A DNA stretch of 39,985 nucleotides, taken from the IMG/VR virus record IMGVR_UViG_2925939204_000007, positions 1-39,985 of that record, one strand, 5' to 3'. Position 1 is the first letter of the stretch; each line of letters opens with the position of its first letter. Below the pieces are notes generated by a model, which saw only the letters and a list, made by a program, of their open reading frames with translations, did not search any database and was not told where the DNA came from. Both the position numbers and the translations under genes were made by a program. The stretch comes from a virus (lineage: Duplodnaviria > Heunggongvirae > Uroviricota > Caudoviricetes). This document shows positions 1-6,881 of the stretch, one piece after another.

Positions 1-549
1 TCAGCTAGCTGGAAACTTTTTATACAGAGTTGAGAGCCCTACTCCATACGTTTTTGATACGCTTTGTCGTGATTCACCGGTTGCCATCCGCTCCCCCATT
101 TCCCGCCATTGCTCATCCGTGAACTTAGGCCTGCGACCACCAACTCGCCCTTTTGCCCTGGCTACGGCCAGCCCTGCTAAGGTACGTTCGCTATTAAGAT
201 CAGATTCATATTGTGCTGCGGAAAGGATGTTACGAAAGTTATAGCGGCCGCTGGCTGTTTTGAGATCCACGCCATCGGTAATACTGCGGAAGTTGATACC
301 CTTTTCCTGTAACTGCTGGAACATCAACAGCGCATGCAGAACGTTGCGGCCTATCCTGTCCAGCTTCCAGACCACCAGTTCATCCCCCGGCTGCATAGTG
401 GCGATCAGCCGTTTTAGAACCGGCCGATTCGATTTCCTCCCGCTGGCATGCTCTTCAAAAATTTTCTCACAACCCGCTGACTTGAGCGCCGTTAGTTGCA
501 ATTCAGTGTCCTGGTGGTTTGTTGATACTCGGGCATAACCGTAAATCAT
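1..549 (-). CDS. DNA invertase, serine recombinase of the Hin/Gin/Pin family
   Basis: ATG at 549 (the listed ORF start at 594 is an upstream extension); N-terminal MIYGYARVSTNHQ resolvase catalytic motif; C-terminal HTH (GESRQSVSKTYGVGLSTLYKKF); about 182 aa; stop TGA at 1-3; adjacent to an invertible tail-fibre segment. Confidence 0.9.
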   Translation of the reverse strand: MIYGYARVSTNHQDTELQLTALKSAGCEKIFEEHASGRKSNRPVLKRLIATMQPGDELVVWKLDRIGRNVLHALLMFQQLQEKGINFRSITDGVDLKTASGRYNFRNILSAAQYESDLNSERTLAGLAVARAKGRVGGRRPKFTDEQWREMGERMATGESRQSVSKTYGVGLSTLYKKFPAS

Positions 550-554
550 GGGAT

Positions 555-580
555 TTCTCCTGTTATGAAAACAGGAGAAA
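555..580 (-). promoter_or_regulatory. Perfect 10-bp inverted repeat (tttctcctgt / acaggagaaa) that includes the invertase Shine-Dalgarno; candidate RBS-sequestering hairpin
   Basis: Read directly: 555-564 tttctcctgt, loop tatgaa, 571-580 acaggagaaa; the AGGAGAAA SD for the ATG at 549 forms one arm; no T-run, so not a terminator. Confidence 0.4.
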
Positions 581-601
581 CGGCGAAGCATCACCAGATT
601 T

Positions 602-1090
602 TTGATGGTTATAAAAAAGGTTGGTTTGGGAGAAACGATAAATAAAGCCTCCGGAGCTATGCAGAAATCGGCTAATGGAGCTGATATTTCTGATGTATCA
701 GCCTTCCGAAATGCGCTCCAGTTAGGGACCGCCGCAACACGAGATGTTGGAGCAGATAATGCCTCGAAGTTACTGGATTTAGACAGCTTCAGGTCAATGA
801 TGTCAGGGAATGGCTACATCTACATTCCATGCATTGCGACGACAGGAAACCCGGTGAAACTTATGTTGCAGTGGGGAACGGTGGCAACACAAAAGGGAGC
901 TGATGCTGGATATGCCTTACCATTTGCTTTTCCCTATGCAGGCTTATTTGCGACCGGAAACCGTGGAACATCTGGCTACAATGCCGCGATGAATGTGCGT
1001 ATTGCCAGCAGAACGCATATCAGTATTCAGAACTGGTCGCCATCCGGAGAGGGCACCGAAGATTGTTGTTTTATCGCGCTGGGGTATTAA
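602..1090 (+). CDS. Alternative (silent-orientation) tail-fibre C-terminal variable segment
   Basis: Ends ...FIALGY like the expressed fibre (...FEAIGY); contains NALQLGTAATRDVGADN similar to ENLQLGEAAKRDVGTGN of the expressed fibre; begins at the inversion site so would fuse in frame to the fibre N-terminus after inversion; probably not independently expressed. Confidence 0.6.
   Translation: MMVIKKVGLGETINKASGAMQKSANGADISDVSAFRNALQLGTAATRDVGADNASKLLDLDSFRSMMSGNGYIYIPCIATTGNPVKLMLQWGTVATQKGADAGYALPFAFPYAGLFATGNRGTSGYNAAMNVRIASRTHISIQNWSPSGEGTEDCCFIALGY
609..634. repeat. Left recombination site of invertible segment (hix/gix-like 26 bp: TTATAAAAAAGG-TT-GGTTTGGGAGAA)
   Basis: Imperfect palindrome with 12-bp half-sites around a 2-bp core; reverse complement of the right half (TTCTCCCAAACC) matches the left half of the partner site at 2143-2168 over TTCTCCCAA; sits at the 5' end of the silent fibre segment. 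Confidence 0.6.
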
Positions 1091-1092
1091 GA

Positions 1093-1503
1093 ATGAATAA
1101 ATTTTATAAAGGCTCTTTCTATCCGAAAGCACTAAAAGAGGTATATATCAGCGCCGATTCATGGCCTGAAAATGGCGTTGATGTTGATGATGAAACAATG
1201 GCAATTTACACAGGCGTAGCGCCACAAGGCAAAACGCTGGGGGCTGATAAAAATGGTAATCCTGCGTGGATTGATATCCCGCCACTCTCCGCTGAACAAC
1301 AGATTATTCAGGCTGAACAGAAAAGAACGGTATTGCGTTCTATGGCTGATAAGGAAATAGCCTGGAGACAGGATGCTTTTGATGCGGAAATCGCGACGGC
1401 AGAAGAAACCGCCGCGTTATCTGAATGGAAAAAATACCGGGTCTTGCTGATGCGCGTTGATACAGCAAAACCCGTATGGCCTGTCAATCCGCAGGATATT
1501 TAA
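1093..1503 (+). CDS. Tail fibre assembly protein (Tfa), alternative orientation
   Basis: 136 aa; C-terminal EWKKYRVLLMRVDTAKPVWPVNP is the conserved Tfa C-terminal signature; follows the alternative fibre segment. Confidence 0.65.
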   Translation: MNKFYKGSFYPKALKEVYISADSWPENGVDVDDETMAIYTGVAPQGKTLGADKNGNPAWIDIPPLSAEQQIIQAEQKRTVLRSMADKEIAWRQDAFDAEIATAEETAALSEWKKYRVLLMRVDTAKPVWPVNPQDI

Positions 1504-1717
1504 CGGGGGCGTTGTAGGTGGTGACATATTCAAGCAGTTCTGTTGGATATGTCACCGTTGCTGCATCTCGCTCTACGTTAAATGTATCCGCTCCCCAGAT
1601 AACACACTCCCTCAAAAATGCCTCCACCTCTGGCGAGACTTCAACCGCATCATCAGGTCGCTCTTGTTCAGAAACATAAAAACCAACGGTCGTTGGGCTG
1701 AAATAGATATTCTCCAT
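1484..1717 (-). CDS. Small protein after the expressed tail-fibre gene (possible short tail-fibre chaperone)
   Basis: 77 aa, ATG at 1717 three nt after the fibre stop; AGGA upstream; lacks the conserved Tfa C-terminus, so function is uncertain; 3' end overlaps the convergent Tfa gene by 20 nt. Confidence 0.4.
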   Translation of the reverse strand: MENIYFSPTTVGFYVSEQERPDDAVEVSPEVEAFLRECVIWGADTFNVERDAATVTYPTELLEYVTTYNAPVKYPAD

Positions 1718-1719
1718 AT

Positions 1720-2493
1720 TTAGTATCCTATTGCTTCAAAATGCAGTGTCGGTGTTTCGCCGAGATTGGGTGTCGTATACGCCACAGTGAATCGCGTTCT
1801 TGATACGTCAGTGCCAGAATCAGTATCGCGATGCGTTGCCAGTGATTTTCCGGCCATTGTTGCCTGGGTCGAATAGCTGTAACTCGCTAGTGTTGCCAGC
1901 GTTGCTATTTGTGCATTTGGGAATTGTCTGGGGAAATTAACCCTGTAGTAATGGGTGTAGTACGTCACCCCACCAAGCACCTGCGCGTTGAAGCTACCAA
2001 CTGGTGTCAGTGTCACAGTGCCAGCCTGTCGAATCATACCATTTGGGAGAATATCCCAGGCAGTTTGTCCGTTTCGCGACATACCAAATGCGGACATGTC
2101 CGGGAGTTGATTATTACCGGTTCCGACATCCCGTTTTGCCGCTTCTCCCAATTGAAGGTTTTCGAGAGCCGTTTTCACCGTGCCATCCGATTTGATATCG
2201 CCAAACGGATTCTTGCGGCTCAGATATTCAACAGCAAACCCCGATCCCAGCAATTCAACAAAACCGGGCAGATCACCATTATCAAGCACATCCCGTTGCG
2301 TTTTATCACTTACAAACTGGGCCAGAGCTGCAGCAATAAAGCTGGCCTGCCGAATAACCTTATTGACTTGCGCACTGGATGCTTTCCCTGCTGTAAATCC
2401 GGATATAAGCGCGGGCAACGCTTCCCATTCCTCCTGCGATATAACATTGGCATTTCGATCCGTTGCAAACGCTTTAAAGTCATTTTTCGCCAT
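1720..2493 (-). CDS. Tail fibre protein (expressed orientation; constant N-terminus + invertible C-terminus)
   Basis: ATG at 2493 overlaps the upstream stop (ATGA); inversion site lies at the codons for ENLQLGE; glycine-rich variable C-terminus ending FEAIGY. Confidence 0.7.
   Translation of the reverse strand: MAKNDFKAFATDRNANVISQEEWEALPALISGFTAGKASSAQVNKVIRQASFIAAALAQFVSDKTQRDVLDNGDLPGFVELLGSGFAVEYLSRKNPFGDIKSDGTVKTALENLQLGEAAKRDVGTGNNQLPDMSAFGMSRNGQTAWDILPNGMIRQAGTVTLTPVGSFNAQVLGGVTYYTHYYRVNFPRQFPNAQIATLATLASYSYSTQATMAGKSLATHRDTDSGTDVSRTRFTVAYTTPNLGETPTLHFEAIGY
2143..2168. repeat. Right recombination site of invertible segment (TTCTCCCAATTG-AA-GGTTTTCGAGAG on + strand), inside the tail-fibre gene
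   Basis: Inverted relative to the 609-634 site; both sites sit in the same codon phase of their ORFs, so inversion gives an in-frame fusion. Confidence 0.6.
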
Positions 2494-3173
2494 CAGAGTA
2501 ATACTCCCCATGCTCCTACATCAAAACCACTGATGTATTCGTTATCAATATCAAACCCAAAGAATTTTGAGCCTTCGGACGGTGTTTCTACCGAAGGCGT
2601 TTCAACACCACCGGCCCATACACCAGCAGCTTTAACGGTGAGATAACCCTGTTTGATAGCGGCTATCAGTTCGAGTGACACATCAGAAATATCAGTCTCG
2701 GGAAAAACCCAGACCGATATCGTCATGTCCTGGTTATCGACGATCTGCATCTTCAGTCCAGAGCCTGCGGTAGCAGCGTCAAGGATGGGAGGCAGAGAGT
2801 CGTTCCGACCATCCCAGTTGTTGATAGCGATTTTCGCTTTCAGAATGATGCGGTACGTCTCATCACTCAGCGTCGTATAACCCGAATCCGGGTCATACGG
2901 CCCCTGCCAGACGCCCTGGTCATATCCGAGCCCGTCAGTGTCCCAGCTAAAATACACCCCGCTTATCGGCTGGCTGACGATGCGGCTTCGCCCAATCCAC
3001 AGGCCGAGGGTATCGAGTTGCACGCCAACCGCCGTATCGATATCGAAGGCTGTTACAAGCCCTGACATAGTGCTGGACACATCAATCAGCGGGCGGGTGC
3101 TCAGATCTATATGGTCAAAAAAGAGTGGCTTGGTAGCATGGTAGTTAGTGATCAGTTCGGTGTATTTGCTCAT
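2493..3173 (-). CDS. Baseplate/tail protein (Mu gp48-like position)
   Basis: 227 aa; ATG at 3173 overlaps the upstream stop (ATGA); sits between the J-like baseplate gene and the tail fibre. Confidence 0.5.
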   Translation of the reverse strand: MSKYTELITNYHATKPLFFDHIDLSTRPLIDVSSTMSGLVTAFDIDTAVGVQLDTLGLWIGRSRIVSQPISGVYFSWDTDGLGYDQGVWQGPYDPDSGYTTLSDETYRIILKAKIAINNWDGRNDSLPPILDAATAGSGLKMQIVDNQDMTISVWVFPETDISDVSLELIAAIKQGYLTVKAAGVWAGGVETPSVETPSEGSKFFGFDIDNEYISGFDVGAWGVLL

Positions 3174-4369
3174 GAGGTCACCGTGATAGTGACGTGACTC
3201 GCAACGCATGACGCAGATTCGTCATAAGCAATATCGATATTTCCGCTTGCGACTGAGTCAGAGGATTTGCCGATGAGCAGCTCCTGAATGTCGTAATAGC
3301 GAGCACTGCCTCCGCTTACCACGCCAAGGTTTGCCGGGGAATAAATACGACTCAGCAGAACGTCATCGCCAATTGCCAGGCCATTTATATAATCGGCAAC
3401 AGCCTGTTTAATCTGCTCGCCGATTTGAGAGGTATAGCCGGTAAAAACTTTCAGGGTAATGGCTACGAAAATTGGCACATCGGTAGAGCGCGAAAAACTG
3501 ATGACGTGTGGATTACCGTAAGTATCCGGCACCGTGACAGAAGTTTTACCGTAAGTTGCGGTTCCCTGCCCTTTACTCCCCCGGATTGTTTGGGCTATCT
3601 CGGTAACATCCCCTCCATCGACGATGGCGGAAATAGAGTGTGGCGGCAGCCCGTTGCTGTCGGTTGCCCCAGTGTCGTTCTCATATAGTTTGTGACGTGT
3701 CACGCCAGCAACATTAGCGATAGCACCGTCGACACCTTCAAACGGTGTGATCGATGGTAGCGCGACGCTTTGCCCCTGCCGAATGCGCAGCTCTGCGTCG
3801 GTTTCTGCTGGTGAACCGACAGTAGCCGCAGCCGGGTTGGTTACCGACACCCAGCCGCGAGTCGGTGTGTTAATGGTGGTGATAGTCCCGGCCATCGCCG
3901 CAACCGAACCGCTATTCGCACATGTGGCCGTCACCAGCACAGTACCATCAACGCCGATCGCTACACTTGCGGGAAAATTCCAGATAATGCCGTTTTTATC
4001 CCGTGCGGAGCCATTCGTGATAGTCGTGCCTGCCGTACCGGTTAACAGAAGGTCAGCAGTAGAGTTTGTCGCTACTTTTCGCGTGATCCCGTTAATTTTC
4101 ACATTGCTGCTAAGCGCTGCGGCCTGCGCTGTCGTCGGTGAAAACGAGTTGTAGATCTCGATAGCGGTATTGTTAGCATCATGCACAGCCAGAGCCACCA
4201 GCGCGACCATTTGCCCATCTTTGCTGTCTGGTTCGAGGTAGGCATCACTACCGTAAATCTGCCTGAAATAGCTGGTCAGTGTATCTAGGATTGTCTGGTA
4301 ATCAGGCGCACTAATCCCCTGGGCGGTTACCGTTGCCGATAGCCCCAGCGTGTCGAGGTTCAAAGCCAT
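3170..4369 (-). CDS. Baseplate J-like protein (Mu gp47-like)
   Basis: 399 aa; position and size typical of baseplate J family; abuts neighbouring genes without gaps. Confidence 0.7.
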   Translation of the reverse strand: MALNLDTLGLSATVTAQGISAPDYQTILDTLTSYFRQIYGSDAYLEPDSKDGQMVALVALAVHDANNTAIEIYNSFSPTTAQAAALSSNVKINGITRKVATNSTADLLLTGTAGTTITNGSARDKNGIIWNFPASVAIGVDGTVLVTATCANSGSVAAMAGTITTINTPTRGWVSVTNPAAATVGSPAETDAELRIRQGQSVALPSITPFEGVDGAIANVAGVTRHKLYENDTGATDSNGLPPHSISAIVDGGDVTEIAQTIRGSKGQGTATYGKTSVTVPDTYGNPHVISFSRSTDVPIFVAITLKVFTGYTSQIGEQIKQAVADYINGLAIGDDVLLSRIYSPANLGVVSGGSARYYDIQELLIGKSSDSVASGNIDIAYDESASCVASHVTITVTS

Positions 4370-4723
4370 TTATGCCTCGCTTGTTACAGTCGTCTGGCCG
4401 TAGATTGTGTCAATGGAGGAAGTGAAGGTGACGCGACGGCTGGTGCCGTCATAATTGGTATCGAAGGAAAGAATCGACAGAACGCCCGGTGTGTCCTGTA
4501 TGCGTTCACGTATAGCCAGGATGTAGACGTCAGATCGCTGTTTACCAAGCACCGACTGAACATACGGCGTGCCTTCCGTCAGATCGAGAAACCACTGACC
4601 GCGCCACAGCTCGAAGCGGGTTTTTACTGCCTGGGCGACACATTCCGGACTGTCGATAAGGAAAGTATCGTCACCCTGCCCGAAAGTGTAATCACCGTCG
4701 GCGTCTTCACGTCTGTATCGCAT
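4370..4723 (-). CDS. Baseplate protein (Mu gp46 / GPW-gp25-like)
   Basis: 117 aa, directly upstream of the J-like gene, as in Mu-like baseplate modules. Confidence 0.55.
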   Translation of the reverse strand: MRYRREDADGDYTFGQGDDTFLIDSPECVAQAVKTRFELWRGQWFLDLTEGTPYVQSVLGKQRSDVYILAIRERIQDTPGVLSILSFDTNYDGTSRRVTFTSSIDTIYGQTTVTSEA

Positions 4724-4726
4724 AAA

Positions 4727-4825
4727 TCACCACCAGCGTATAGCGCTAATAACGCTTGACAGACCGAATAAAAAGAACACGGCCCAGATGAGGAAGAATT
4801 TCCAGTTGGGTAGTTTTTCGCCCAT
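4727..4825 (-). CDS. Small hydrophobic peptide (32 aa, single predicted TM helix)
   Basis: Not in the ORF track (under 60 aa); ATG at 4825 with GGGAG 9 nt upstream; MGEKLPNWKFFLIWAVFFLFGLSSVISAIRWW; stop 4 nt before the next gene start. Confidence 0.3.
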   Translation of the reverse strand: MGEKLPNWKFFLIWAVFFLFGLSSVISAIRWW

Positions 4826-4896
4826 GACTCGCAACTCCCGTATCAGTTTGCTAAAATTAATCACATATTCTCCCTTGCTATCCTCAAGGTGCAGAA

Positions 4897-4943
4897 AGTA
4901 AAAAGCCCCGAAGTGTTAGCGCACCCGGGGCTTTTGTCTGTTT
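4897..4943. terminator. Bidirectional Rho-independent terminator-like hairpin between the spike gene and downstream baseplate genes
   Basis: GCCCCG ... CGGGGC stem (4905-4910 / 4926-4931) preceded by an A-run and followed by a T-run on the + strand. Confidence 0.5.
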
Positions 4944-4951
4944 GGTAGTTT

Positions 4952-5692
4952 TTAATTAGGCGCGGTAGTATTCCCGCTGCCATTCTGCACACCGCCATGG
5001 GTATGCTGGATGAGGCTCTTACCTCCAGCCTTCACATCGTTAGTCACCGTCACCGGCCCAAGCATCGTCGCAGTACCGCCACTTTCGCCCATTCCCTGAG
5101 ACAGATTGCCATTAATCGTTACGTTGCCGTTCAGCGTGATAGTCGGGGATGTGATTGTCGTTCCACCTTCAGCCGTAGCCGTGAGCTGGCCCGGTGTTTG
5201 AACGGTGATGTTATGTCCTGCGGCAACCTCTACGAACGCCGCACCATCATCGGTTCGCAGCTGCGCGGCGCTGGTACTGATACCGCTGATTTTCTGTGCT
5301 TGCGACTGCGGGCCAACGATGGCGAACGCATCAGATAAGTCATGCTGTCGCGGATCGACGGTCTCCTGAACGCCGCCGCTCTGCCACCAGAAATCGATGC
5401 AACGGTCGGCAAAGATCAGTAGGCACTCGTCGCCTTCTTTTACCGGAAAGGTCAGCGTGCAACCGCCGCCGCGCGGGAAGATAACCGGCACATCCACCAG
5501 CGGTTTTAATTCGGTGGAGCCATCGCCAACAATACCGCGAAGCGCTACCTCTACTGTGCAGGTAACAGTGTCAGGATCGAACGACTGAATGATGCCGGGC
5601 ATCGCTACGCGCATCTGGGTAGACACCGAATCGACAATGGCCTGCGCGGTCTGCTGCTCACCGCCGATCTGTGATTGAGTTGGAATTGGCAT
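4952..5692 (-). CDS. Baseplate central spike (gpV / Mu gp45-like)
   Basis: 246 aa; Gly/Thr-rich C-terminal region typical of spike beta-helix; GGAG RBS 7 nt upstream of the ATG at 5692. Confidence 0.7.
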   Translation of the reverse strand: MPIPTQSQIGGEQQTAQAIVDSVSTQMRVAMPGIIQSFDPDTVTCTVEVALRGIVGDGSTELKPLVDVPVIFPRGGGCTLTFPVKEGDECLLIFADRCIDFWWQSGGVQETVDPRQHDLSDAFAIVGPQSQAQKISGISTSAAQLRTDDGAAFVEVAAGHNITVQTPGQLTATAEGGTTITSPTITLNGNVTINGNLSQGMGESGGTATMLGPVTVTNDVKAGGKSLIQHTHGGVQNGSGNTTAPN

Positions 5693-5703
5693 AAAAACTC
5701 CAT

Positions 5704-5756: not shown

Positions 5757-6881
5757 TCAGTTCATACCAGCTCCTTTATAATTCTTACACGGTACAGCTA
5801 CAGTCACCATTTCTACGTATCCGTCATTGCCTTGTTTTTTACACATTGCGTTATGCATTACTGCAAGCCTAGCGGCATGATCAAAATCGATATAATTATT
5901 ACCAAATGAAGCCTCGCCGAGAGCTGCAACTTTCGTCATGTCTGGTGTGTTGGGGTCTTTTACCATTTTAGCAAAATTGCTTAGACCCCTACCAACCTGA
6001 TCAAAGCACTGAGCTTCTATATCGTAGCCTGAGTATGCTGAGATACGCTGACATTCAGATAGGTGTTCTTTTACTGATAAATTTATTCGATATAAAGTCA
6101 GGTAAGATTTCCCAACGTGTATATAAACTTTCATGGGGTTATTGGTATTGGGTGACCTTGTTACAAATGAAAGCTTACTATACGCATCCCTAAGAGACCG
6201 TGCTTTTTTACTGGAAAAAACATCACCAAGCCCTACAACTGGCACCTCTGGGTTTGCTTTATCCTGCGCGATGGCTTTTTCTTTTTCAATCTGACTTGAC
6301 TTAGATATAATTTGCGCTCTCATAGAGCTTATTTTGATTACGACTTCATTCCTTATTTTATATAAATCACTAACTGACTGTTTAAAGTCTTGCTCGCTAA
6401 TGCTGTTGAGGCCAAAATACTCACGTTCTTTTAAAAAGTCGCTATACACTTTAGAAACATGGTTAGGATCTGATAACGCACTAGATCCAAAGATAATTGA
6501 GTAGTTATTCAAAATATCAGCAACGGTTGAGTATCTAACAGATTTATCTTCTATTTTATAAGTCGATGGTGGATGCCCTACATAATCATGAATTGACAGA
6601 TAAAGCGCAGTTATACCAATTGGACTAGTATTGGCCTTTTCAACCACATCTTGAAATGTACAACCTTTAGGGCATAGTGATTCACCACCCTCATTCGCAG
6701 TTAATTTATCGTCCTCTAGAACGTAATTAATGGCCTGCACCCCAGCTTTAGAATGTATAATTTCAGTTTTCTGCTTTTGATACTCATTATTTAGTTGAGT
6801 TCTCTGAGCTAAACCACACCCTGAAATAAAGCTACAAACCATCCATATAAAAAAATATTTCTTAAATGTCATGTATTTCAT
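5757..6881 (-). CDS. Lipoprotein of unknown function (moron inside the baseplate operon)
   Basis: 374 aa; N-terminal signal peptide with lipobox (MKYMTFKKYFFIWMVCSFISGC); ATG overlaps the hub-gene stop (ATGA); markedly AT-rich (17 G/C in 60 nt at 6301-6360); followed by its own terminator. Confidence 0.75.
   Translation of the reverse strand: MKYMTFKKYFFIWMVCSFISGCGLAQRTQLNNEYQKQKTEIIHSKAGVQAINYVLEDDKLTANEGGESLCPKGCTFQDVVEKANTSPIGITALYLSIHDYVGHPPSTYKIEDKSVRYSTVADILNNYSIIFGSSALSDPNHVSKVYSDFLKEREYFGLNSISEQDFKQSVSDLYKIRNEVVIKISSMRAQIISKSSQIEKEKAIAQDKANPEVPVVGLGDVFSSKKARSLRDAYSKLSFVTRSPNTNNPMKVYIHVGKSYLTLYRINLSVKEHLSECQRISAYSGYDIEAQCFDQVGRGLSNFAKMVKDPNTPDMTKVAALGEASFGNNYIDFDHAARLAVMHNAMCKKQGNDGYVEMVTVAVPCKNYKGAGMN

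Follow-up and report, generated by a model that had tools for sequence, protein, structure and literature searches.

A probable Din-type invertible tail-fibre segment at the end of an Escherichia coli prophage

Background

DNA segments that flip and thereby exchange the tip of a tail fibre are a textbook route by which phages change their host range. One of them is the G segment of phage Mu, which spans 3 kb and adjoins the gene of its invertase, Gin. In this system, a constant fibre N-terminus is followed by one of two alternative C-termini, each with a convergent assembly gene, and the 26-bp crossover site lies inside the fibre ORF (gix; TTATCCAAAACC TC GGTTTACAGGAA). The P segment of e14, a cryptic remnant carried by E. 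coli K-12, is organized in the order invertase (PinE), site, silent tip with its Tfa, convergent Tfa and expressed tip. Phages phi80 and HK225 have an invertase of another type (PinL in phi80) that is accompanied by a solitary site only, beyond which lie pseudogene fragments or unrelated genes. Finally, fibre segments also occur in P2-like prophages of E. coli: their inversion has been shown experimentally in EPEC, and inversion of the fibre segments of e14 and P2-like prophages has been reported in growing E. coli cultures (PMC4272514).

Here, we describe a related locus found in a stretch of 39,985 nt, referred to below as the window, which corresponds to IMG/VR record IMGVR_UViG_2925939204_000007. 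A first-pass annotation had likened this locus to Mu G, P1 C and e14 P, and the likeness to Mu G and e14 P was confirmed on the records of these two elements.

Results and discussion

Overall organization of the locus

The window holds an E. coli prophage with lambdoid regulation and a contractile tail of the DUF2612/baseplate-J kind. Its gene set looks complete (terminase, head, sheath/tube, baseplate, lysis, Q, replication, RecET and integrase), unlike that of e14. At one end of this ca. 40-kb prophage lies what is probably a 1.5-kb invertible tail-fibre segment of the Din family (Hin/Gin/Cin/Pin-type). As such, it adds one more ordinary member to a known family of fibre switches and leaves the current understanding of DNA inversion systems unchanged. 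Its anatomy, the codon phase of its sites, the kinship of sites and enzyme, and the natural occurrence of each component in two orientations in other prophages are established by the data below. The features concerned are as follows.

1..549, minus strand: serine DNA invertase of the phi80 PinL/HK225 type, 182 aa (Pfam Resolvase 3.6e-39 and HTH_7 1.5e-9)
555..580, minus strand: 12-bp hairpin predicted by RNA folding in the invertase mRNA leader, pairing the Shine-Dalgarno AGGAG
609..634, plus strand: left crossover site (invertase side), TTATAAAAAAGG TT GGTTTGGGAGAA, core 621-622
605..1090, plus strand: silent alternative fibre C-terminus, Gp53-like_C (Pfam PF21882 1.5e-8), used part 623-1090 (155 aa)
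621..2156, no strand: invertible segment from core to core, 1536 bp
1093..1503, plus strand: canonical tail-fibre assembly protein (Tfa) serving the alternative C-terminus, 136 aa (Pfam Caudo_TAP 3.4e-30)
1484..1717, minus strand: protein of 77 aa encoded at the chaperone position of the fibre expressed at present, a probable fibre-specific minimal chaperone
1720..2493, minus strand: tail fibre as now assembled, 257 aa (PHROG 11303 tail fibre 8.6e-65; Pfam Gp53-like_C), with a constant N-terminus (2157-2493) and a variable C-terminus (1720-2154)
2143..2168, minus strand: right crossover site, lying within the fibre gene; minus-strand sequence CTCTCGAAAACC TT CAATTGGGAGAA, core 2155-2156

The arrangement follows that of Mu G and has the same gene order as e14 P. 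The first-pass annotation had described a segment of ca. 1.5 kb adjoining an invertase gene, and both the intact Gin-like gene and the distance between the cores bear this out. The segment is half as long as that of Mu and its fibre is much shorter (257 aa, or 268 aa after inversion). The cassette genes of K-12 (stfP, tfaP, tfaE and stfE) are unrelated in DNA to those of the window. P2-like prophages carry the same cassette at 99.5-99.7% identity, and the homology to them stops at 616/621 on one side and at 2161/2167 on the other. These prophages have another invertase, other outer half-sites and a much longer constant fibre part (ca. 350 aa, Phage_tail_fib).

The invertase and its leader

Judged from its sequence, the invertase gene is intact, Gin-like and under purifying selection. 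The product matches the Gin structure 3UJ3 over its full length (residues 1-181, E=1.4e-56), keeps the catalytic Ser9 motif YxRVST in the form YARVST, and has more than 70 invariant columns in common with PinE, Gin and the invertase of P2-like prophages, to which it is 52-55% identical (55% for PinE and 54% for the P2-like enzyme). It is far closer to the enzymes of phi80 and HK225, with 99.8% nucleotide identity to the HK225 gene and only 18 synonymous and 1 non-synonymous differences from phi80 pinL. This similarity extends over window positions 1-632/637, which include the invertase gene, the leader hairpin and the left site and are 99.8% identical to HK225 and 93% identical to phi80; moreover, in E. 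coli AR_0118 (GCF_002055635.1), a lysogen of this prophage, the prophage adjoins yciI, the phi80/HK225 attachment locus. In phi80, however, pinL contains a premature stop, and only in the window, not in either phage, does the module adjoin a complete invertible cassette together with a fibre gene of the myovirus type.

The start of the invertase gene is separated from the left site by 60 bp (55 bp for the equivalent gap in e14). The RNA folded from positions 530-640 (minus strand) reached -28 kcal/mol (z=-5.45), and none of 200 shuffled sequences was as stable. The hairpin repeat, which carries the annotation IR3 in the phi80 record, probably dampens translation of the invertase, as suggested by its pairing with the Shine-Dalgarno.

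In known Din systems, a Fis-bound recombinational enhancer is located in cis within the invertase gene, in its 5' portion, and Fis and an enhancer may also take part in the switch described here. A loose pair of G-N13-C motifs, which we take to be Fis-like, occurs in gin, pinE and the P2-like invertase gene, one motif at gene position 29 and the other 49 bp further on, at position 78, whereas the invertase type of the window keeps only that at position 29; the motif is degenerate and this half conservation carries little weight.

Crossover sites

Two 26-bp sites with a hix/gix-like architecture had been proposed in inverted orientation at 609-634 and 2143-2168. A generic inverted-repeat search returned this pair as the longest of 153 (28 nt, 71% match), a result that is unconvincing as proof on its own, and a 12-nt half-site matrix was used instead, built from independent sites only, namely Mu gix (AF083977) and the e14 sites of K-12. 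When the whole 40-kb window was scanned on both strands, the right site ranked first (21.6 bits) and the left site second (21.4 bits), the third-best match having 10.0 bits. In 200 shuffled sequences, the best score averaged 12.0 bits and the second best never exceeded 16.0. The proposed sites are therefore the top two matrix matches, albeit with weak palindromy (12 of 26 self-complementary positions at each site) and with half-sites of unequal quality, one good and one poor per site (4.8/16.6 and 7.4/14.3 bits); the poor match of the left site is its outer half-site.

The two sites are identical at 17 of 26 positions and have the central TT in common. Closely related to them are the e14 sites of K-12, which also have a TT core and share with the window both the outer half-site on the fibre side (CTCTCGAAAACC) and the inner half of the left site (GGTTTGGGAGAA), without any difference. 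The right site together with the adjoining constant region of the fibre gene is 92% identical to e14 over 88 bp, and all 26 positions of the right site are identical in the fibre-side site of an e14-like prophage (L019). The difference from e14 resides in the outer half-site on the invertase side, which is TTATAAAAAAGG in the window and TTTTCATAAACG in e14. Mu gix matches the left site at 17 of 26 positions, with a TC core where the window has TT.

Direct reading of the codons indicated that both sites occur in the same phase. The right site falls on the codons L-E-N-L-Q-L-G-E of the fibre gene and the left one on I-K-K-V-G-L-G-E, at the start of the ORF at 602/605-1090, in agreement with the first-pass annotation, which had put the right site at ENLQLGE and the left site at the beginning of the alternative C-terminus.

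Two fibre tips in a common reading frame

The start of the fibre gene overlaps the stop of the DUF2612 baseplate gene, and its constant part, from position 2142 onward, is 96% identical to that of vB_EcoM-611R5, a backbone relative which carries a different, e14-like cassette. Gp53-like_C tips are present on both strands of the segment. No similarity was detected when the two tips were compared with each other, and each aligned only to fibres bearing its own tip. The alternative C-terminus had been described as promoterless; indeed, a promoter scan gave no convincing candidate pointing into 605-1090, a single 9/12 match (522-549, plus strand) being fewer than expected from shuffled sequences, and there was no sign of independent expression of the silent cassette.

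Exchange at the central dinucleotides was simulated in silico and produced an uninterrupted, in-frame fibre of 268 aa (...TALENL/GLGETINK...IALGY, stop), followed by the Tfa gene. The flipped-state junctions predicted for the window prophage are GGTTATAAAAAAGGTTCAATTGGGAGAAGCGGC and CGTTTCTCCCAAACCAAGGTTTTCGAGAGCC, the left junction being GGTTATAAAAAAGGTTCAATTGGGAGAAGCGGCAAAACGG and the right one TTTATCGTTTCTCCCAAACCAAGGTTTTCGAGAGCCGTTTTCACC. Natural P2-like prophages carry exactly the predicted fusion to the alternative C-terminus, which in one of them (L001) corresponds, at 96% identity, to residues 346-505 of an annotated tail protein of 505 aa. The proposal that inversion swaps the fibre C-terminus in frame and brings the Tfa gene into register is thus matched both by the simulated ORF and by a fusion found in nature.

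On this basis, the invertase would bind both 26-bp sites and cut the central TT/AA dinucleotides at 621-622 and 2155-2156, and rotation and rejoining of the DNA would flip the 1.5 kb between them. In the present orientation, the late operon would run from the baseplate genes through the constant part of the fibre and C-terminus A (1720-2154) to the 77-aa partner. Inversion would fuse this constant part, which ends in ...TALENL, in frame to C-terminus B (623-1090), with the canonical Tfa (1093-1503) following. Since the two operon arrangements would alternate, the phage population would display two tips for receptor binding, either of them paired with a separate assembly factor, and the two states would presumably differ in host range.

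Partner genes of the two tips

Each variable tip is followed by a gene of its own, Tfa after tip B and the 77-aa gene after tip A, and these two genes are convergent with an overlap of 20 bp. The C-terminal half of the Tfa aligns to residues 107-175 of Mu U (5YVQ_B, E=1.1e-9). The 77-aa protein, in contrast to Mu U and to the assembly proteins of e14 P, is non-canonical: it ends at residue 77 and lacks the conserved C-terminal helical domain of Tfa (ca. 107-175 in Mu U). It had no Pfam match, including no match to Caudo_TAP (PF02413) at E<=0.01, and only its residues 1-31 matched PHROG 188 (Tfa; E=9e-5), so that the absence of a Tfa C-terminus noted by the first-pass annotation is upheld. Alignment by hhalign to the window Tfa and to Mu U gave probabilities of 1% or less.

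The 77-aa gene is real. Homologues of 75-96 aa are found in several enterobacterial genera, the dN/dS is 0.08-0.10, and the AF2 model has a pLDDT of 90. In three non-invertible P2-like prophages having the same fibre tip (L013, L015 and L016), a homologue is the sole gene between fibre and sheath. The conservation of length across genera, the low dN/dS and the sole occupancy of the chaperone slot rule out a truncated Tfa pseudogene. A structural homology with the N-domain of Mu U was also considered and is unsupported, the best Foldseek hit against viral models having an E-value of 0.025. A profile search of 1.84 billion representatives returned only 17 proteins; a 192-aa protein containing a Phage_tail_APC domain gave one weak motif match.

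Because it lacks the conserved C-terminal domain of Tfa, the 77-aa protein may be a minimal, fibre-specific chaperone. The first-pass annotation had suggested that chaperone requirements may differ between orientations, and this fits the pairing of one tip with a canonical Tfa and of the other with a protein that has no Tfa C-terminal domain and occupies the slot alone elsewhere. It is conceivable, although we hold this only tentatively, that the protein founds an unannotated family of minimal fibre chaperones devoid of the Tfa oligomerisation domain and that the switch toggles two mechanistically different assembly routes together with the tip. If the 77-aa partner suffices as a chaperone, no smaller helper of this kind would be available for the retargeting of fibres or tailocins.

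Orientation of the segment in other genomes

The window cassette was found in both orientations in sequenced genomes of P2-like prophages. Two of these (L001 and L002) are collinear at 99.8% on both flanks but have the 1539-bp cassette inverted, with breakpoints that correspond to window positions 618-637 and 2155-2156. Among 5,426 complete E. coli genomes, the P2-like constant part was fused to the tip of 623-1090 in 19 and to that of 1720-2154 in 37. For e14-like prophages, which share their right site with the window at every position, the predicted flipped junction was present in 3 genomes and the unflipped one in 9.

In IMG/VR contigs, other cassettes that adjoin the invertase type of the window and an identical left outer half-site likewise occur in two orientations. 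In one pair (L051 and L046), positions 1-635, comprising the invertase and the left outer half-site, are 100% identical and positions 621-2491 are inverted; in another (L055 and L040), the flanks are collinear on both sides and the middle is inverted. These loci were recovered with a second search pattern, a first all-against-all comparison having given no inverted pairs with a pattern that could not match the flipped state.

The window prophage itself has been seen only unflipped, in 2-7 genomes. When window positions 1-2600 were flipped in silico and compared with the 5,426 E. coli genomes, none matched with at least 80% coverage, a search without power because the native arrangement itself was present in only 2. 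Likewise, matches running from the cassette into the invertase numbered 0 for the flipped query and 7 for the native one (H1-H7, starting at query position 1, 413 or 443). An exact-pattern scan of one-genome-per-species contigs for either left junction yielded 0 matches, and scans of metagenomes and IMG/VR did not find the left junction of the window but many other cassettes adjoining the same invertase type. We infer that the window prophage flips at the present day.

Alternative explanations

It is unlikely that the locus is instead the descendant of a Din switch that no longer inverts at a useful rate, whether because the left half-site is poor, the enhancer lacking or the invertase under strong repression, so that only the present fibre and its 77-aa partner are made. 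Such a loss would be consistent with the 4.8 bits of the left outer half-site, the missing second Fis-like motif (a degenerate one), the sequestered Shine-Dalgarno and the single arrangement seen for this invertase-cassette combination. Relatives point the same way: two backbone relatives with a fixed fibre (L004 and L005) retain a solitary site in the fibre gene without an invertase, the invertase adjacent in L018 is a truncated pseudogene, and phi80 and HK225 keep the invertase type with a solitary site only. Here, however, the invertase is full length, with nearly all of its differences from phi80 pinL synonymous, and cassettes next to the same enzyme type and left outer half-site are found in either orientation. 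In addition, the silent C-terminus and its Tfa are intact ORFs, near-identical to copies expressed elsewhere, and seven non-independent genomes are too few to reveal a bias given a background ratio of 37:19.

Even less probable is that the segment inverts mainly in defence of the lysogen, one orientation giving a fibre fusion that masks the receptor and blocks superinfecting phages. This role was reported for the P segment of e14, in which PinQ-driven inversion yields StfE2 (PMC12529663), and the window is tied to e14 by the 88 bp around its right site and by e14-like elements of other strains that bear the window cassette itself. Yet the window prophage looks complete, which the cryptic e14 does not, and a virion function of the fibre is therefore the simpler reading.

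A chance inverted repeat, in which LGLGE would merely be a conserved fibre peptide and the site similarity would have no recombination function, can be dismissed: the motif does occur in non-invertible fibres (...LGLGDAAKR... in L015; also L004 and L005) and the generic search gave just 71% over 28 nt, but none of the 200 shuffled sequences had two sites scoring above 21 bits, and chance would not be expected to supply a neighbouring invertase, tips on opposite strands, breakpoints of homology at the cores and natural inversions.

Distribution of the cassette

The query 1-2600, which spans the cassette, had at least a partial match in 2145 of the 5,426 complete E. coli genomes. Tail backbones of at least five kinds were found to carry the full cassette, in each case joined at the crossover sites; the cassette is therefore a receptor-binding module that nature plugs into different tails. 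Its crossover sites may act as portable junctions at which whole tip-plus-chaperone cassettes are swapped among unrelated phages (P2-like, e14-like, lambdoid side-fibre and the myovirus of the window), through invertase- or RecET-mediated recombination.

Recognition of the switch explains differences in the fibre gene between prophages that are otherwise near-identical. In RefSeq, the genes concerned are labelled "recombinase family protein", "gp53-like domain-containing protein" and "hypothetical protein", and the stand-alone 161-aa "gene" at 605-1090 is in reality the silent C-terminal cassette.

Organization of the probable invertible tail-fibre module

In silico analyses support the interpretation of the left end of the window as an invertible tail-fibre switch of an already known kind, with e14 P/Pin and Mu G/Gin as the nearest counterparts. 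This particular instance is new in combining a PinL-type invertase and a DUF2612-type myovirus fibre with a widely shared cassette. The genes concerned are listed below; the fibre gene follows a baseplate-J gene and then the DUF2612 baseplate gene.

Genes of the proposed switch
1-549, minus strand: serine recombinase (invertase) of 182 aa; the window begins at its stop codon
602/605-1090, plus strand: ORF with a Gp53-like_C fibre tip (silent)
1093-1503, plus strand: canonical tail-fibre assembly gene, Tfa (Caudo_TAP, E=3.4e-30)
1484-1717, minus strand: 77-aa ORF, convergent to Tfa, with no Pfam match
1720-2493, minus strand: tail-fibre gene (Gp53-like_C); its start overlaps the stop of the DUF2612 baseplate gene

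A RefSeq locus of the E. coli genome AR_0118 displays 99.9% identity to the window over 1-2600 and belongs to a complete prophage of ~40 kb, located between yciI and kch, in which lambdoid early genes (Q, O/P-like replication, RecET, integrase) are associated with a contractile tail module. This position fits with phages HK225 and phi80, in which the invertase gene adjoins the attP for yciI. Several IMG/VR viral contigs (L035, L037, L040, L042 and L051) also start exactly at the invertase stop codon, the site pattern being found at 611-636; since prophage boundary calls stop at a gene end, the att site beside yciI would lie just outside the window.

Crossover sites and reading frame

The two sites are mutually inverted and have a central TT in common: the left one (609-634) reads TTATAAAAAAGG TT GGTTTGGGAGAA and the right one (2143-2168, minus strand) CTCTCGAAAACC TT CAATTGGGAGAA. 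Because a generic repeat finder was uninformative, ranking this pair no better than many others, a 12-nt half-site matrix was built from sites of other records, namely Mu gix (annotated G-segment boundaries, AF083977) and two e14 sites located in K-12 (record L007, 3779-3804 and 5606-5631). When the whole window was scanned on both strands, the proposed sites ranked first and second with 21.6 and 21.4 bits, the third match reaching 10.0; over 200 shuffled sequences, top scores had a mean of 12.0 ± 2.2 and no runner-up went above 16.0. The proposed sites are confirmed, at exactly the coordinates given in the first-pass annotation, but their description as 26-bp imperfect palindromes is generous because in each of them a strong half-site is paired with a weak one. 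A weak point is the left outer half-site, which fits the matrix poorly.

The right site reads ...L E N L Q L G E A A K R... in the fibre frame and the left one ...I K K V G L G E T I N K... in that of the silent ORF, with the core TT at codon positions 2-3 in both, which bears out the matching codon phase noted earlier. Exchange in silico at the cores yields a 268-aa fibre (...KTALENL-GLGETINKASG...FIALGY*) with the Tfa gene starting two bases after it, as anticipated if inversion swaps the fibre C-terminus in frame and brings Tfa (1093-1503) into register. The alternative C-terminus had also been called promoterless, and a promoter scan revealed no convincing promoter pointing into the silent ORF (602/605-1090).

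Inversion in related elements

The cassette (616/621-2161/2167) is 99.5-99.7% identical to that of P2-like prophages having unrelated flanks. On either flank two of these (L001 and L002) align collinearly at 99.8%, and the 1539 bp in between are inverted; the breakpoints map to window positions 618-637 and 2155-2156, and the four junction sites correspond to the expected pairings of each of the two outer half-sites with each of the two inner ones around TT. Junction-spanning queries detected the P2-like fibre joined to the tip of window 623-1090 in 19 genomes and to that of 1720-2154 in 37. The cassette also occurs in e14-like prophages, the fibre-side site of which is identical (26/26) to the right site of the window; when one of them (L019) was flipped in silico, the predicted junction was present in 3 genomes, at 97.5-97.7% over the full 600 bp, the unflipped junction being found in 9.

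A search for exact patterns in IMG/VR and metagenome contigs identified, beside the invertase, a tip starting with GE-A... at 28 loci and with GE-G... at 11. Between contigs L051 and L046, identity is 100% over 1-635 and 621-2491 is inverted core to core; L055 and L040 have collinear flanks on both sides of an inverted middle. Three loci have a left site that is exactly TTATAAAAAAGG TT CAATTGGGAGAA GC, the hybrid to be expected after flipping of the window. Together, the P2-like, e14-like and invertase-type or left-half-site data indicate that recombinant forms have been observed for every component of the switch. The arrangement of the window itself was encountered only unflipped; 2 genomes contain the whole module and 7 the left junction, a sample too small to conclude. 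Segments of e14 and of P2-like prophages invert in growing cultures (PMC4272514).

Mosaic structure and solitary sites

A query spanning the cassette (1-2600) has at least a partial match in 2145 of the 5426 complete E. coli genomes. Three unrelated phage groups share homology with successive parts of this region, and the change from one group to the next falls exactly at the two crossover sites.

Segments of distinct homology
1-632/637: HK225/phi80 invertase module
616/621-2161/2167: cassette, also in P2-like, e14-like and lambdoid side-fibre contexts
2142 onward (compared to 2600): backbone of vB_EcoM-611R5, which itself carries another, e14-type cassette

Two prophages related by the backbone (L004 and L005) have neither invertase nor cassette, and a perfect e14-type 26-bp site, TTCTCCCAAACC AA GGTTTTCGAGAG, occurs alone in their fixed fibre gene (4487-4512 in both). 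A single site is therefore not in itself a sign of a switch, and these solitary sites, together with the homology changes, suggest that crossover sites act as junctions for the exchange of a tip-plus-chaperone cassette, an idea with a long history in the Din and tail-fibre fields. Such exchange might proceed by site-specific or by short-homology recombination.

The 77-aa partner

The product of 1484-1717 is the only part of the switch that might be new biology. Its homologues, of 75-96 aa and down to 59% identity with 21 invariant columns, occur in Escherichia, Citrobacter, Enterobacter and Phytobacter. In three non-invertible P2-like prophages (L013, L015 and L016), whose fibre tips are 53-58% identical to the expressed tip of the window, the homologue is the only gene between the fibre and sheath genes, i.e. 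in the gpG slot. A decayed Tfa was rejected on the basis of this sole occupancy, of the length conserved across genera and of a dN/dS of 0.08-0.10 (versus the L015 and L016 copies). As first described, the protein lacks the conserved Tfa C-terminal domain, which the canonical Tfa of the window shares with Mu U; in Tfa, trimerisation has been attributed to this domain and fibre binding to the variable N-domain (PMC9608196). Its link to Tfa proteins is weak: residues 1-31 match PHROG 188 (E=9e-5), a motif matches a 192-aa Phage_tail_APC protein, a 60-aa 'Tfa' from Pantoea phage LIMEzero comes up in Foldseek at E=0.044, and hhalign against Tfa and Mu U was negative. The AF2 model is confident (pLDDT 90), with no significant neighbour in the PDB. 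Given its position, the way it co-varies with the fibre tip and the purifying selection on its gene, the protein is best regarded as a putative fibre-specific minimal chaperone or adaptor.

Invertase and its putative control

The invertase gives a full-length alignment to Gin (PDB 3UJ3, E=1.4e-56), has 52-55% identity to Gin, PinE and the P2-like prophage invertase, and retains the catalytic serine of YxRVST. The nucleotide sequence of 1-632 shows 99.8% identity to HK225 and 93% to phi80 pinL, the latter gene differing by 18 synonymous and 1 non-synonymous changes. In phi80 (L012), a premature stop at codon 173 removes the last 10 HTH residues of PinL, and phi80 and HK225 (L011, 4109-4134) each carry only a solitary crossover site beside the invertase, so that the module of these two siphoviruses has the appearance of a remnant.

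The minus-strand RNA of 555-580, a stretch located between the start of the invertase gene and the left site, contains a perfect 12-bp hairpin, UUUCUCCUGUU-UUCAU-AACAGGAGAAA, which pairs the invertase Shine-Dalgarno sequence and corresponds to the repeat annotated as IR3 in phi80. The 530-640 region (minus strand) folds at -28 kcal/mol (z=-5.45), and the hairpin may keep invertase translation low, or inversion rare.

The gin, pinE and P2-like invertase genes have two Fis-like G-N13-C motifs with centres 49 bp apart (gene positions 29 and 78), of which the window/HK225 type keeps only the first, the motif being a degenerate one.

Fis-like motif positions in the window invertase
514-528, minus strand: first position (gene 22-36)
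465-479, minus strand: second position, motif not kept (gene 71-85)

Scanning the invertase gene for this motif gave no confirmation of a Fis enhancer; that of this subtype may be different or elsewhere.

Finally, a 374-aa ORF (5757-6881, minus strand) with a lipoprotein-like signal (...FISGC) and no Pfam match lies within the baseplate gene cluster, with a GC content of 37-38% versus about 52% in its surroundings. The match to AR_0118 over 2157-5700 comes in 2 pieces that cover 93% of this stretch, so that the two sequences differ at some point within it, and AR_0118 has a slightly shorter hypothetical gene annotated at the position equivalent to the 374-aa ORF, which looks like a moron or cargo gene.
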